From contig OZ245020.1 of assembly GCA_965223865.1 (NCBI GenBank), positions 1,088,001 to 1,152,000 on the forward strand: 64,000 nt of DNA. The letters are read 5' to 3'. Both the position numbers and the translations under genes were made by a program. The first letter of the stretch is position 1. Each line of letters begins with the position of its first letter. The notes under the pieces were generated by a model that saw only the letters and a list, made by a program, of their open reading frames with translations, was not told the DNA's origin and did no database searches. Origin of the DNA: Nitrosarchaeum sp. (GTDB lineage: Archaea > Thermoproteota > Nitrososphaeria > Nitrososphaerales > Nitrosopumilaceae). This document shows positions 40,237 through 44,659 of this stretch, piece by piece.

Positions 40237-41409
40237 TTGACGAGGGTCACAATTACTATAAAGAAATCCAAGCATGCAAACAAGTTTGGAAAACTAATTT
40301 TTGATGATGGTACTGTTCTTGACGGAATGGGTTTTGGTTACTCTACGACCGTTTTTGGTGAAATCGTGTTTAATACTGGAATGGTAGGATATAACGAAAC
40401 ACTAACCGATCCATCTTACAGTGGTCAAATTCTTACTTTAACTTATCCTCTTGTGGGAAATTATGGTGTTCCAGATCCTGCTAGTATGGATGAAGATGGG
40501 ATATCCAAATTCTTTGAATCTGATAAAATCCAAGTGAGAGGATTAGTTGTTCATGAATTGTCATTGACTGCTAGTCATTGGAATCTCTTTATGACTCTAG
40601 ATGAGTGGCTTTACAATGAAAAAATTCCCGGAATCTCGGGAATTGATACTAGAGAACTAACGAAGAAACTACGAACGAAAGGCGTTATGATGGCTGCTTT
40701 GGTAGTTTCTGAAGAAAACATCGATATTGATGAAGTCAAAAAACAATTGGCATCAGCTCCAAATTATAATTCAGAGAAATTCATGGCTGCTGTTTCGACA
40801 AAAGAAGAACAGGTATATGGTTCTGATGAAAAATCTGTGGTTGTAATTGATACTGGTGCAAAAAATGCAATTCTTAGAAATATCCGTGAGATTGGCTACA
40901 AAGTTATCAAACTTCCATGGAACACTACCTTTGAAAAAATTCTTTCTTACAAACCAAAAGGAGTTGTAATTAGTAATGGACCAGGTGATCCTCAAAACTG
41001 TCCTGAAACAGTACTAGTTGCAAAAAAATTAATTGAAAATAATATTCCTACTTTGGGAATTTGTTTAGGTGCTCAAATTATTGGCTTAGCTGGTAATACA
41101 GAAACGTATAAACTAAAATACGGTCATCGAGGGCAAAACAAACCTTGTGTTAATCTAGAAAATAATCAAGTATATGTTACAAGTCAAAATCATGGTTATG
41201 GAATTACCCCAGAATCTTTAAGCAAATCTGAATTTGATTTATGGTTTACAAATGCAGACGACAAAACAGTTGAAGGAATAAAACACAAAAAACAAAATTG
41301 TGTTGCTGTGCAGTTTCATCCTGAAGCAGCACCAGGTCCTTATGATTGTAAATTTGTCTTTGAAGAGCTTAAACACCTTATGGAGGAAGGAAAGTCTGCC
41401 AAAGAATGA
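40237..41409 (+). CDS. carA: Carbamoyl-phosphate synthase small subunit
   Basis: GEIVFNTGMVGY.E.LTDPSY.GQ, SNGPGDP, GICLG, HRGQN, QNHGY and QFHPE motifs. Confidence 0.98.
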   Translation: MTRVTITIKKSKHANKFGKLIFDDGTVLDGMGFGYSTTVFGEIVFNTGMVGYNETLTDPSYSGQILTLTYPLVGNYGVPDPASMDEDGISKFFESDKIQVRGLVVHELSLTASHWNLFMTLDEWLYNEKIPGISGIDTRELTKKLRTKGVMMAALVVSEENIDIDEVKKQLASAPNYNSEKFMAAVSTKEEQVYGSDEKSVVVIDTGAKNAILRNIREIGYKVIKLPWNTTFEKILSYKPKGVVISNGPGDPQNCPETVLVAKKLIENNIPTLGICLGAQIIGLAGNTETYKLKYGHRGQNKPCVNLENNQVYVTSQNHGYGITPESLSKSEFDLWFTNADDKTVEGIKHKKQNCVAVQFHPEAAPGPYDCKFVFEELKHLMEEGKSAKE

Positions 41410-44400
41410 GTCGATAAGTAAAATTCTTGTACTTGGTAGTGGGGCAATAAAAATCGGAGAAGCCGGCGAGAGTCGCAAAAACGACCGCTAATTTGACTAC
41501 TCCGGAAGCCAATGCCTTAAAGCAATACATGAAGATGGACTGAAAAGTATCTTAATCAATCCAAACATTGCTACAATTCAGACTGACACTAGATTTGCAA
41601 ATCAGGTTTATCTTCTACCTGTGACTCCTGATTATGTAGAATCTATTATCGAAAAAGAAAGACCTGACGGGATAATGTTGGCATATGGAGGCCAGACAGC
41701 ACTTAATTGTGGTGTAAAACTAGCTGAAGCAGACATACTACAAAAATATGGAGTCAAGGTTCTAGGTACACAAGTAAATGGAATTCAGAGAGCTGAAGAT
41801 AGACAACTCTTCAAAGATTCTATGAATGAATGTGGAGTTCCAATACTCAAAAGCAAAACCGTTACTAATTTTGATGATGCAAAAAAGGTAGCAGAAGAGC
41901 TTAACTATCCTGTAATTATTAGAGTTGCCTATACTCTAGGTGGAAAAGGTGGAGGGGTTGCATTTAATGAAATTGAATTACATGAAATTGTTGAAAGGGG
42001 ATTAAAAGCAAGTCTAGTCGGCCAAGTCCTTGTTGAAGAATATGTTGGTCACTGGAAACAAATTGAATATGAAGTCATGCAAGACTATGATGGTAACAAC
42101 GTGATTGTATGTAATATGGAAAATGTCCTTTCTATGAAAGCACACACAGGAGATAATATTGTGGTTGCTCCTTCTCAAACAATTGATAATCGTGAGTATC
42201 ATATGTTACGTTCTGCAGCTTTGCGAGCGACAAAACACGTAGGAATAGTAGGTGAATGTAACATACAGTATGCACTTGATCCTGATTCTGATAGATATGT
42301 TGCAATTGAAATAAACCCTAGATTATCACGTTCCTCTGCACTTGCAAGTAAAGCTACTGGATATCCTTTAGCATACATGTCTGCAAAAATAGGATTAGGA
42401 TACAATTTGTCAGAATTGATAAATAGAATTACAAAAAGTACAACTGCATGTTTTGAACCTTCTCTTGATTATGTTGTATGTAAACATCCAAGATGGGATT
42501 TTGCAAAGTTTGAACTTGTAAATAGAAAATTAGGTCCTACGATGAAATCCGTCGGTGAAGTCATGGCAGTTGGAAGAACTTTTGAAGAATCTCTCCAAAA
42601 AGCTATCCGAATGTTAGATATTGGAAATGATGGTTTAGTTCTAAATCGTCAAAATGGCAAATCCTATACAGAAGAAGAAATTGAAGATAAATTGTCTCAT
42701 CCTGATGATCAAATACTATACCATGTAGCATTGGCTCTCAAAATGGGAATTTCTGTTGAACGAATTTACAAGTTATCTGCTATAGATCCTTGGTTTATTG
42801 AAAAAATAAAAAACATTTCAAATATTGAGCAGGCTCTGAAAAATTCTGAATTAGACAAAGATATACTTTGGAAGGCTAAAAAAATGGGTTTTTCGGATAA
42901 ACAAATTGGACGCTCAAAAGACAAACCAGTAGATTTTGTGCGTAATTTACGTAAAAAATATGGAATTGTGCCATCTGTTAAACAAATTGATACTCTTGCG
43001 GCTGAATGGCCTGCTGTCACAAATTATCTGTATTTGACATATGGTGGAAATTCTCATGATATAGAAATTTCACCTGATGAAAAAGGGATTGTTGTTGTTG
43101 GTGCTGGGCCCTATAGAATAGGTAGTAGTGTGGAGTTTGATTGGGGTACTGTAAACATGGTGTGGGGATTGCAAGAAAATGGAGAAAAAAATATCTCCGT
43201 GGTAAACTGTAATCCTGAAACTGTTTCTACAGATTATGATATATGTACAAGATTATATTTTGAGGAATTAACTCAAGAGAGATTATTAGACATTGCTGAT
43301 TTTGAAAATCCTAAAGGAGTTATTACATGTGTAGGTGGTCAAACTGCAAATAACTTGACTCCTGGACTTGCAGAACACGGTGTCAATATTATGGGAACAA
43401 GTGCTCATGATGTAGATAGAGCTGAAGATCGTTCAAAATTTAGTGCCGAACTTGACAAACTTCATATCCAACAACCACGATGGCAAGCTTTTTCAAATCT
43501 TAACGAAGCAAAAAATTTTGCACTAGATGTTGGCTTTCCTGTAATTGTTAGACCTTCTTACGTTCTTTCTGGTGCTGCTATGAAGGTTGTATGGTCGCAA
43601 GATGAACTCAAAACATATGTGAAAGAGGCTACGGATGTTTCGCCTGATCATCCCGTTGTTATTTCCAAATTTATGCTAAATTCTCTTGAGGTTGATGTAG
43701 ATGGAATTAGTAATGGAAAAGATGTAGTGATTGGAGCAATAGTTGAGCATATTGATAGTGCAGGAGTTCACTCTGGTGATGCTATGATGTGTATTCCACC
43801 TTGGCGTTTAAGTAATAAAATTATTGAGACTATTACTGAATATACAAAAAAAATTGCAACTACTTTTAATGTTAAAGGACCTTTCAATTTGCAATTTTTA
43901 ATACACGATGATCATGTCTATGTAATTGAGCTCAACATTCGTGCATCTCGTTCTATGCCTTTTGTGTCTAAACTTGTAAAAACCAACCTTATATCATTGG
44001 CATCAAAGGCAATTTTAGGAAAGCCTTTACCCCAAATACCAGAAAATAAGTGGCAAAAAATTCCAAACTTTGGAATAAAGGTGCCTCAATTCTCATTTAT
44101 GCAGCTAGATGGTGCAGACATTGCCTTGGGTGTAGAAATGCAATCTACAGGAGAGGCTGCATGCTTTGGAAACAGCTTTTTTGATGCATTAGCTAAAGGA
44201 TTAACTTCTGTAGGATATAATCTCCCTGAGCATGGAACTGCACTTGTAACAGTAGGAGGTGCTCAAAACAAAGAAAAATTATTACAAACAATTGCAAAGC
44301 TAAAAAGTCTAGGATTTCAAATTTTGGCAACTGAACACACTGCAGAATTCTTCCAGGAGAAAATCGGGGAGATTCAAGTGGTTCACAAAATCTCTGAACC

Positions 44401-44659
44401 TGAAAGAAAACCAAACATCAAAGATTTACTTTATCAAAGAAAGATAGACTTTATCATAAATATTCCAAGTACATCCACATTGGAAAAATATGTTGGTATG
44501 CTTGATGATGAATATCAAATTAGGAGAAAATCTTTAGAATTAGGAATTCCTGTTTTAACAACAATTGAATTGGCCGACTCTTTTGTAAAAACATTGGAGT
44601 GGTTAAAGGATAATCAAACAACAAAAAATCCAATAGAACCTTATGATCATATGGGATGA
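41396..44659 (+). CDS. carB: Carbamoyl-phosphate synthase large subunit, interrupted by a 21-nt insert (exons 41396-41470 and 41492-44659; 1080 aa if spliced)
   Basis: CTG start after GGAGG gives MPKNESISKILVLGSGAIKIGEAGE, then after the insert FDYSGSQCLKA..., in frame with ORF 41621-44659 (two ATP-grasp domains + MGS domain). Confidence 0.95.
41471..41491 (+). other. Candidate archaeal BHB/BHL-type mRNA intron
   Basis: AGTCGCAAAAACGACCGCTAA with in-frame TAA; helix GGCG/CGCT, bulges AG^A and AA^T, inner stem GTCG/CGAC; canonical cuts restore GAG-TTT (E-F). Confidence 0.8.

Follow-up and report, generated by a model that had tools for sequence, protein, structure and literature searches.

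The window analysed here, a stretch of 64,000 nucleotides from the ammonia-oxidising archaeon Nitrosarchaeum sp., carries carB, an essential gene for carbamoyl-phosphate synthase, with carA adjoining it on the 5' side, the final 14 bases of carA overlapping the inferred start of carB. The carB frame is interrupted by a 21-nucleotide (nt) insert at 41471-41491, AGTCGCAAAAACGACCGCTAA (= AGUCGCAAAAACGACCGCUAA), which lies between the codons for ...GEAGE and FDYSG... and ends in an in-frame TAA (UAA in the message). Read in the carB frame, the region gives ...KILVLGSGAIKIGEAGE-SRKNDR-stop-FDYSGSQCLK... (after the stop, FDYSGSQCLKAIHEDG...). Owing to this stop, open reading frame (ORF) calling with translation table 11 breaks carB into two separate frames, one of 63 codons that runs up to 41491 and one of 1012 amino acids (aa) that opens with the GTG at 41621. 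The original prediction, made from the letters of the DNA, had seen here 21 extra nt with an in-frame TAA between GE and FDYSG and an otherwise intact carB; sequence and translation bear out both points, as the frame is open for 1055 codons from 41492 and encodes the complete CarB domain set. Very probably, to judge by the sequence features set out below, the insert is an intron of the archaeal splicing-endonuclease (EndA) type, with a relaxed bulge-helix-bulge (BHB) structure (the HBh' or bulge-helix-loop, BHL, form) after codon 25 of carB. The genes and gene parts of the locus are as follows.

40237-41409, forward strand: carA, glutamine-amidotransferase small subunit, an ORF of 390 aa (Pfam CPSase_sm_chain, 1.4e-48; GATase, 7.4e-48).
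41396-41470, forward strand: carB exon 1, 25 codons, LPKNESISKILVLGSGAIKIGEAGE (Pfam PF25596 positions 2-20, E 0.0016).
41471-41491, forward strand: putative carB intron, 21 nt, AGUCGCAAAAACGACCGCUAA; relatives have an insert of 17-52 nt at the same site, and intron-less homologues lack it exactly here.
41492-44659, forward strand: carB exon 2, 1055 codons and a stop, an open frame (Pfam CPSase_L_D2, 5.3e-102; CPSase_L_D1; CPSase_L_D3; MGS).

The comparison with relatives drew on 80 named records, one of them too short to judge, and on 61 genomes from the GTDB order to which the source genome belongs, this genome being one of the 61. The 5' end of carB was recovered in 57 of the 61 genomes (no match in G002, G008, G014 and G052, which are 60%, 95%, 72% and 77% complete, respectively); an insert lies at exactly the same codon boundary in 39 of these 57 and is absent in 18. 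It occurs in 30 of the 34 sampled genomes of the source genome's own family and in nine genomes from eight other families (f2, f3, f4 twice, f8, f10, f11, f13 and f15). Forty-one of the 80 named records also carry it, among them Nitrosarchaeum, Nitrosotenuis (including Ca. N. chungbukensis MY2), Nitrosotalea, Nitrososphaeraceae, Ca. Nitrosopumilus salarius BD31 and Nitrosopumilus sp. b1. The named records without the insert include 15 labelled as ammonia-oxidising archaea (AOA), mainly marine Nitrosopumilus and Nitrosopelagicus, all six assessable non-AOA archaea (Nezhaarchaeales, Thermoproteota, Jordarchaeia, Promethearchaeota, Thermoprotei and Nanoarchaeia) and all 17 assessable bacteria. 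Once four duplicates had been removed, a search with the exon motif left 74 distinct loci with the insert and 38 without; three further inserts fall outside this motif (L047, L102 and L136). The same-position inserts that the original prediction had proposed to look for are thus found, in a total of 77 loci spanning Nitrosopumilaceae, Nitrososphaeraceae and other families of the order.

Intron presence can differ within a single GTDB genus, as between G005 and G001, G003, G004 and G006 (the source genus), or between G045 and G060 (both genus g36). One record labelled Candidatus Heimdallarchaeota (L080; JALUTL010000388.1, a 2.5-kb contig) has an AOA-type carB with a 21-nt intron; its CarB is 89% identical to the source protein and branches inside Nitrosopumilaceae, and the record is probably a binning contaminant.

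The insert cannot be translated through in any of the 74 motif-matched loci. Its length is 17 nt in one locus, 20 in 11, 21 in 47, 22 in nine, 26, 29, 30 and 38 in one each, and 52 in two; all 48 inserts that are divisible by three contain an in-frame stop, and the remaining 26 shift the frame. Exon 1, in contrast, has every appearance of coding sequence. The residues L-G-S-G-A (codons -13 to -9, counted back from the insert) and K-I-G-E-A-G-E (codons -7 to -1) are invariant in all 74 loci; at codon -8, 71 loci have Ile and three have Leu. Synonymous positions outside the RNA helices described below are free to vary, the Gly at codon -12 being GGT in 29 loci, GGA in 22 and GGC in 22. Invariant residues combined with variable synonymous sites indicate purifying selection on a translated frame. 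Moreover, the CPSase preATP-grasp profile (Pfam PF25596) matches exon 1 over its positions 2-20 and exon 2 over positions 21-117, so that the exons abut at 20/21 and removal of exactly the insert leaves no residue missing or added. An intron-less relative, L017, matches positions 3-117 of this profile in a single piece, and the product of excision (GE followed directly by FDYSG) is colinear with the intron-less homologues.

These observations make it highly improbable that carB is a split or decaying gene, in which exon 1 would be a relic and CarB would be made from an internal start such as the GUG at 41621, or not at all. Such a reading would agree with the ORF calling, which yields just the 1012-aa frame from 41621, and with the lack of a canonical start ahead of exon 1. 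It does not agree with the invariance of LGSGA.KIGEAGE in exon 1 while synonymous sites outside the helices vary, with the exact abutment of the two exons in the Pfam profile, or with the maintenance of the arrangement in 77 loci across families. The interrupted gene is furthermore the sole carB of a near-complete genome (2.01 Mb in 4 contigs, rated 99.98% complete). No second carB was found in the source genome, where the next-best matches are unrelated ATP-grasp proteins of 24-37% identity; the intact copy elsewhere that would have undermined the original prediction is therefore missing, and a blastn-short search of the same genome found no second copy of the intron either.

As for an assembly or sequencing error, its probability is practically nil. 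The insert is present in 77 loci of independent assemblies, and contigs of two further public runs bridge it gap-free (record 13 of run X2 over 41440-41659 and record 22 of run X3 over 41444-41557), which refutes an artefact. Among the contigs of other runs, the variant 41470 G>A is a synonymous GAG/GAA change that is also found in relatives.

Support for the intron also comes from its predicted RNA structure. The minimum-free-energy (MFE) fold of 41445-41515 contains every pairing proposed in the original prediction (the exon-exon stem, GGCG/CGCU, the bulge AGA and GUCG/CGAC), and an RNAalifold consensus of 54 distinct homologous sequences gives the same fold independently. In the consensus, the exon-exon helix pairs columns 3-7 with 57-61 and is extended by columns 9-11 with 52, 54 and 55; after one unpaired base follow the four base pairs (bp) of the central helix H (13-16 with 43-46), a 3-nt bulge (17-19) and the intron hairpin h' (20-23 with 39-42), and on the 3' strand five unpaired bases (47-51) hold the 3' junction. 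As this junction lies in a loop, the motif is of the relaxed HBh'/BHL form; the label of relaxed BHL first given to it, for a clean 3-nt bulge at the 5' site and a 3' site in a 1x5 internal loop, was thus the right one. The elements of the fold in the source sequence, all of them on the forward strand, are listed here.

41455-41459, forward strand: outer helix h, 5' strand CGGAG (exon 1), paired with 41500-41504 in the MFE and consensus folds.
41465-41468, forward strand: central helix H, 5' strand GGCG (exon 1), paired with 41486-41489 in the MFE and consensus folds.
41469-41471, forward strand: 5' bulge AG^A (the caret marks a predicted cut, here after G41470), unpaired between H and h'.
41472-41485, forward strand: intron hairpin h', GUCG (41472-75), loop CAAAAA and CGAC (41482-85), the stem lying flush with the bulge and H.
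41486-41489, forward strand: central helix H, 3' strand CGCU (intron), in the MFE and consensus folds.
41490-41494, forward strand: 3' splice-site loop AA^UUU, the five-nt side of the 1x5 internal loop, with a predicted cut after A41491.
41500-41504, forward strand: outer helix h, 3' strand CUCCG (exon 2), in the MFE and consensus folds.

Covariation was assessed in an alignment (A1) of 54 of the 57 distinct sequences, the three longest introns (L100, L101 and L104) being left out. Pairing holds in 95.6% of the cells, a level that none of 500 shuffles attains (91.3 +/- 0.3) and that drops to 21-56% if the partners are displaced by 1-3 columns. Likewise, none of the 500 shuffles attains the covariation score of 0.226 (shuffles 0.142 +/- 0.005) or the 53 cells changed on both sides (shuffles 16.3 +/- 2.8). 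The claim that the fold covaries is hence supported, in h' and H. The main source of the signal is h', with 99.5% of its cells paired and compensatory changes at three of its four pairs (10 sequences have C-G in place of U-A, 8 have U-A in place of C-G, and 20 have A-U, U-A or C-G in place of G-C). Counted without an alignment, a stem of at least 3 bp runs from just after the first intron base to just before H in all 74 loci. In H, 95.8% of the cells are paired, with one compensatory pair, C-G to U-A, in two sequences of two other families; four pairs are present in 62 of the 74 loci. The outer helix h has 100% of its cells paired. In the three Nitrososphaeraceae sequences left out of A1, the intron has grown to 38-52 nt by A/T-rich sequence within the hairpin; the stem is longer (up to 11 bp), and H and both junctions are unchanged.

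Here again, codon usage in the exons tells the same story. Comparing intron-bearing loci with intron-less AOA, the Ile codon of the exon helix is ATC in 73/74 vs 7/21, the Gly codon in the 5' strand of h is GGA in 73/74 vs 3/21, and the Gly codon in the 5' strand of H is GGC in 72/74 vs 3/21; in exon 2, Asp is GAC in 71/74 vs 5/22, Tyr is TAC in 73/74 vs 6/22, and Ser is TCC in 66/74 (the other 8 being TCT, which gives a G-U pair) vs 3/22. Synonymous sites are frozen only where they are paired, and only in the intron-bearing genes, with the caveat that bacterial carB genes of higher G+C can share the exon string through codon preference.

The splice sites can be placed by an established rule. 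In each 3-nt bulge, EndA cleaves between the second and the third nucleotide, the bulge itself coming immediately after one strand of the 4-bp helix. For carB, this puts the cuts after G41470 and A41491 and yields GGC GAG^UUU GAC, that is G-E^F-D. The predicted cuts give GE^FD in every intron-bearing locus; the 5' bulge reads AA^A in 51, AG^A in 22 and AG^U in one of the 74, and the 3' junction AA^U in 62, AG^U in seven and AU^U in five. An ARN bulge between H and h', which is the geometry of a canonical 5' site, is present in all 74. The tRNA introns of the same genome follow the same rule. The 12-nt intron of tRNA-Ile(GAU) fits it with CUGA at positions 32-35, U36 and A37, the first cut, an intron ending in UCAG AA, the second cut and then A38, and the 49-nt intron of tRNA-Tyr(GUA) at 37/38 fits once the boundary given by aragorn is moved by 2 nt. 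That cuts at AG^A and AA^U would excise exactly 21 nt and join E to F, as first proposed, therefore matches the geometry of the organism's own tRNA introns. The aragorn boundaries are unreliable, six of the eight intron calls being incompatible with the rule as placed; this program reports 45 tRNAs in the source genome, eight of them with introns, and a 'tRNA-SeC' with a 278-nt intron at G000:C1:297493-297868, which is probably spurious.

The enzymes that such an intron would need are encoded. There is a single RtcB gene, and there are two full-length EndA paralogues (178 and 199 aa, both with PF02778, PF01974 and TIGR00324), the second of which also gives weak matches to beta-subunit models; which of the two is the catalytic alpha and which the beta subunit is presumed from motifs. 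According to PMC5829648, no endonucleases other than those of the (alpha-beta)2 and epsilon2 types cut relaxed forms of the motif, and Thaumarchaeota have conserved the (alpha-beta)2 type. A crenarchaeal (alpha-beta)2 enzyme cleaves a BHL mini-helix of pre-tRNA-Tyr from Cenarchaeum symbiosum, and the cbf5 pre-mRNA intron is likewise a BHL, as described in parts of PMC3241643.

Two other ways of getting past the insert have to be weighed at this point. Ribosomes might skip it on the unspliced mRNA, by translational bypassing of the phage T4 gene 60 type or by another form of recoding; a stop and a hairpin directly after a conserved Glu codon do resemble known bypass sites. For bypassing, the codons of take-off and landing have to match. 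In carB the former would be GAR (GAA or GAG), whereas the triplet before exon 2 varies (UAA, CAA, AAA, CAG, AAG, CAU and AAU among others) and never matches it in the loci compared; the insert length, moreover, spans 17-52 nt, and a 4-bp helix that covaries and ends exactly 2 nt ahead of both junctions is a trait of EndA substrates, seen also in the organism's own tRNA introns. We therefore regard bypassing as very unlikely. Somewhat less remote, yet still quite unlikely, is removal of the insert from the RNA by other means, be it another nuclease with a ligase or self-cleavage. The non-canonical 3' site would be in keeping with this. An Rfam scan of 41250-41750 gave one chance-level CRISPR-DR match (E = 5.5) and nothing relevant, so that no ribozyme or other Rfam family is apparent at the locus; 17-52 nt is too small for a group I or II intron; and the geometry equals that of the genome's own tRNA introns, EndA and RtcB both being encoded.

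Under the splicing-endonuclease reading, carA and carB would be co-transcribed, a heterotetrameric (alpha-beta)2 EndA would cut after G41470 and after A41491, and RtcB would ligate GGCGAG to UUUGAC, the released 21-mer probably being circularised. The 1080-aa CarB would then be translated only from the joined message, translation of unspliced mRNA being expected to end at the UAA at 41489-91, after 31 codons. Unless the tRNA-splicing enzymes first excise the intron from the mRNA, it appears, no CarB can be made.

A number of observations weigh against this reading or reduce its force. At the 3' site, a 1x5 internal loop takes the place of the canonical 3-nt bulge of the strict hBHBh' motif. 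Folded as a single sequence, the region reaches -15 kcal/mol with z = -1.35, and 19 of 200 shuffles fold equally well or better. Two of the five whole-structure measures in A1 are within the range of the shuffles, namely the number of both-side-changed pairs (19 of 500) and that of further pair types (67 of 500). In 12 of the 74 loci the outer pair of H is replaced by G.A, leaving three pairs, and the changes in the outer helix h are all one-sided and wobble-compatible, with no compensatory pair in A1. L136 (genome G048, family f13) has good H and h' helices, but its codons ATA GGT GAA ... TAC TCA GG preclude an exon-exon helix; as the intron is kept there without this helix, the helix may be dispensable. 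The sequences are kin, so the counts overstate the independent support. No exon-exon joint was found in the contigs of four public runs (X1, X2, X3 and X5, all of unknown kind). Finally, the CTG start of carB is non-canonical and deduced from its position.

The intron has also been lost with precision. In L087 and in three metagenome contigs 91-97.5% identical to it (L153, L156 and L163), none of which has the insert, the junction reads GGCGAA^TTCGAC, and the gene keeps the intron-type exon codons (ATCGGAGAAGCGGGCGAA before and TTCGACTACTCCGG after the junction) as well as CTG at the start position. The L087 lineage is a case of recent and exact loss at the predicted splice sites, within a 1-nt ambiguity from a repeated A. 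In older intron-less lineages, the exon-helix codons are randomised. A CarB tree was built from 108 rows and 195 columns (without the duplicates L055, L056, L079 and L082, the bacterial L119-L131, the truncated L132, and L133-L143); it is poorly resolved, with 12 of 105 inner branches starred. All of its outgroups are intron-less, and the intron-less AOA are nested among the intron-bearing ones. At least 12 changes of intron state are needed on this tree, only two of them forced by supported branches, and the state is clustered beyond 500 shuffles. Most likely, as the simplest reading of this CarB tree, there was one early gain in the order followed by several precise losses.

Fourteen stretches with the junction motif in metagenome contigs were considered as spliced transcripts and rejected, as their DNA comes from genes that have no intron: ten have their closest match in bacterial carB, three belong to the L087 lineage and one is Nitrososphaeraceae-like, several of them on contigs of 27-377 kb.

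How does this element compare with known systems? Passages of a 2023 review (PMC10485636) put the number of archaeal genes known to be spliced by the tRNA endonuclease at no fewer than two, cbf5 and HVO_1309, and hold that there are probably others still to be discovered. A 2009 survey of cbf5 credits neither N. maritimus nor C. symbiosum with an intron in this gene, and mentions predicted introns in other genes, traced to Sulfolobus and rudivirus work (PMC2738675). A full-text literature search found no published carB intron, subscription papers and supplements being outside its reach. It is well supported that the carB intron is a new archaeal mRNA intron of an already known relaxed BHB (HBh'/BHL) kind, and carB would be the third archaeal gene with an mRNA spliced by the tRNA endonuclease, after the two named in those passages of the review (PMC10485636).

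The closest parallel is the cbf5 intron of Crenarchaeota (Desulfurococcales and Sulfolobales). From what parts of the literature on it report (PMC2738675, PMC10485636, PMC3241643), its hosts likewise have an (alpha-beta)2 EndA, and it is likewise lineage-wide with secondary losses and confusing to gene callers. It differs in the gene and the lineage concerned, carB belonging to central metabolism and to ammonia oxidisers; furthermore, cbf5 splicing has been shown experimentally, whereas that of carB is deduced from its sequence. The HVO_1309 mRNA of Haloferax volcanii is also an archaeal mRNA processed by EndA, but in a euryarchaeal host with an alpha2 enzyme and in an unrelated gene, going by passages of PMC10485636, which rank it second among spliced archaeal genes. 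Archaeal pre-tRNA introns of the BHB and BHL kinds share with the carB intron the 4-nt helix strand ending 2 nt before each splice site, the AA^N 3' junction and the possibility of a very small size (12 nt in the organism's own tRNA-Ile). Unlike them, the carB intron has an mRNA as host RNA and an outer helix made of coding sequence, which therefore constrains codon choice.

A genome-wide scan for other frame-restoring BHB-like inserts gave 4095 matches with a loose filter and 96 with a stricter one, carB being recovered as a positive control. Ranked by G-C pairs, carB comes first (6), and the others, with at most 4, resemble gene boundaries or tRNA neighbourhoods. This crude scan of the source genome revealed no second convincing BHB-like mRNA insert, its filter being narrow enough that other examples may exist. 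Contig C4 of the same genome (G000; 11,096 bases), which lies outside the window, gave identical scan matches every 2,584 bases (493, 3077, 5661, 8245 and 10829) and looks like four or more tandem 2.58-kb copies, or a circular element assembled repeatedly.

The inferred start of carB, a CTG at 41396-98 preceded at 7-10 nt by a GGAGG-like Shine-Dalgarno sequence, stands where intron-less relatives have ATG or TTG. At this codon (-25), CTG is found in 41 of the 74 intron-bearing loci, and ATT or CTA in Nitrososphaeraceae and Nitrosotenuis; intron-less AOA have ATG in nine of 21 and TTG in nine of 21. In many loci, the stretch that leads from the closest preceding stop to the intron contains no ATG, GTG or TTG in frame. 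Taken as raw numbers, 17 of the 74 intron-bearing loci and 18 of the 21 intron-less AOA have a canonical start; once kinship is taken into account, an association of start codon and intron is unsupported (two independent pairs on supported branches, p = 1).

A tiny intron that carries a stop codon, lies 75 nt into the message and follows a weak, non-canonical start (CTG or ATT) in most intron-bearing lineages invites comparison with the XBP1/HAC1 case of eukaryotes. In XBP1/HAC1, the non-spliceosomal endonuclease IRE1 removes a tiny intron from a cytoplasmic mRNA, and a tRNA ligase then seals the ends; there too, as proposed for carB, excision restores or changes the reading frame. The enzyme differs, being IRE1 and not EndA/TSEN, and XBP1/HAC1 splicing is a regulated stress switch. 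One might speculate that the carB intron is an archaeal counterpart, a gate on CarB synthesis and no passive relic, in which splicing would compete with co-transcriptional translation and in this way set the level of an enzyme for arginine and pyrimidine precursors. On that view, the circularised 21-mer could be a signal, or simply a by-product. Any such regulation is hypothetical, and we hold this proposal to be doubtful.

The carB intron thus combines unusually strong comparative support with a place in a central biosynthetic gene of ammonia-oxidising archaea. Since cultured genera carry it (Nitrosarchaeum, Nitrosotenuis, Nitrosotalea and Nitrososphaera), archaeal mRNA splicing becomes testable in mesophiles that can be grown, and nature provides a clean series in which the intron is present, varies in length (17-52 nt) or has been lost precisely. 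The case is also an instance of RNA structure constraining codon choice within a coding region. Standard gene callers truncate such a carB or label it a pseudogene, which may distort metabolic reconstructions of these organisms.

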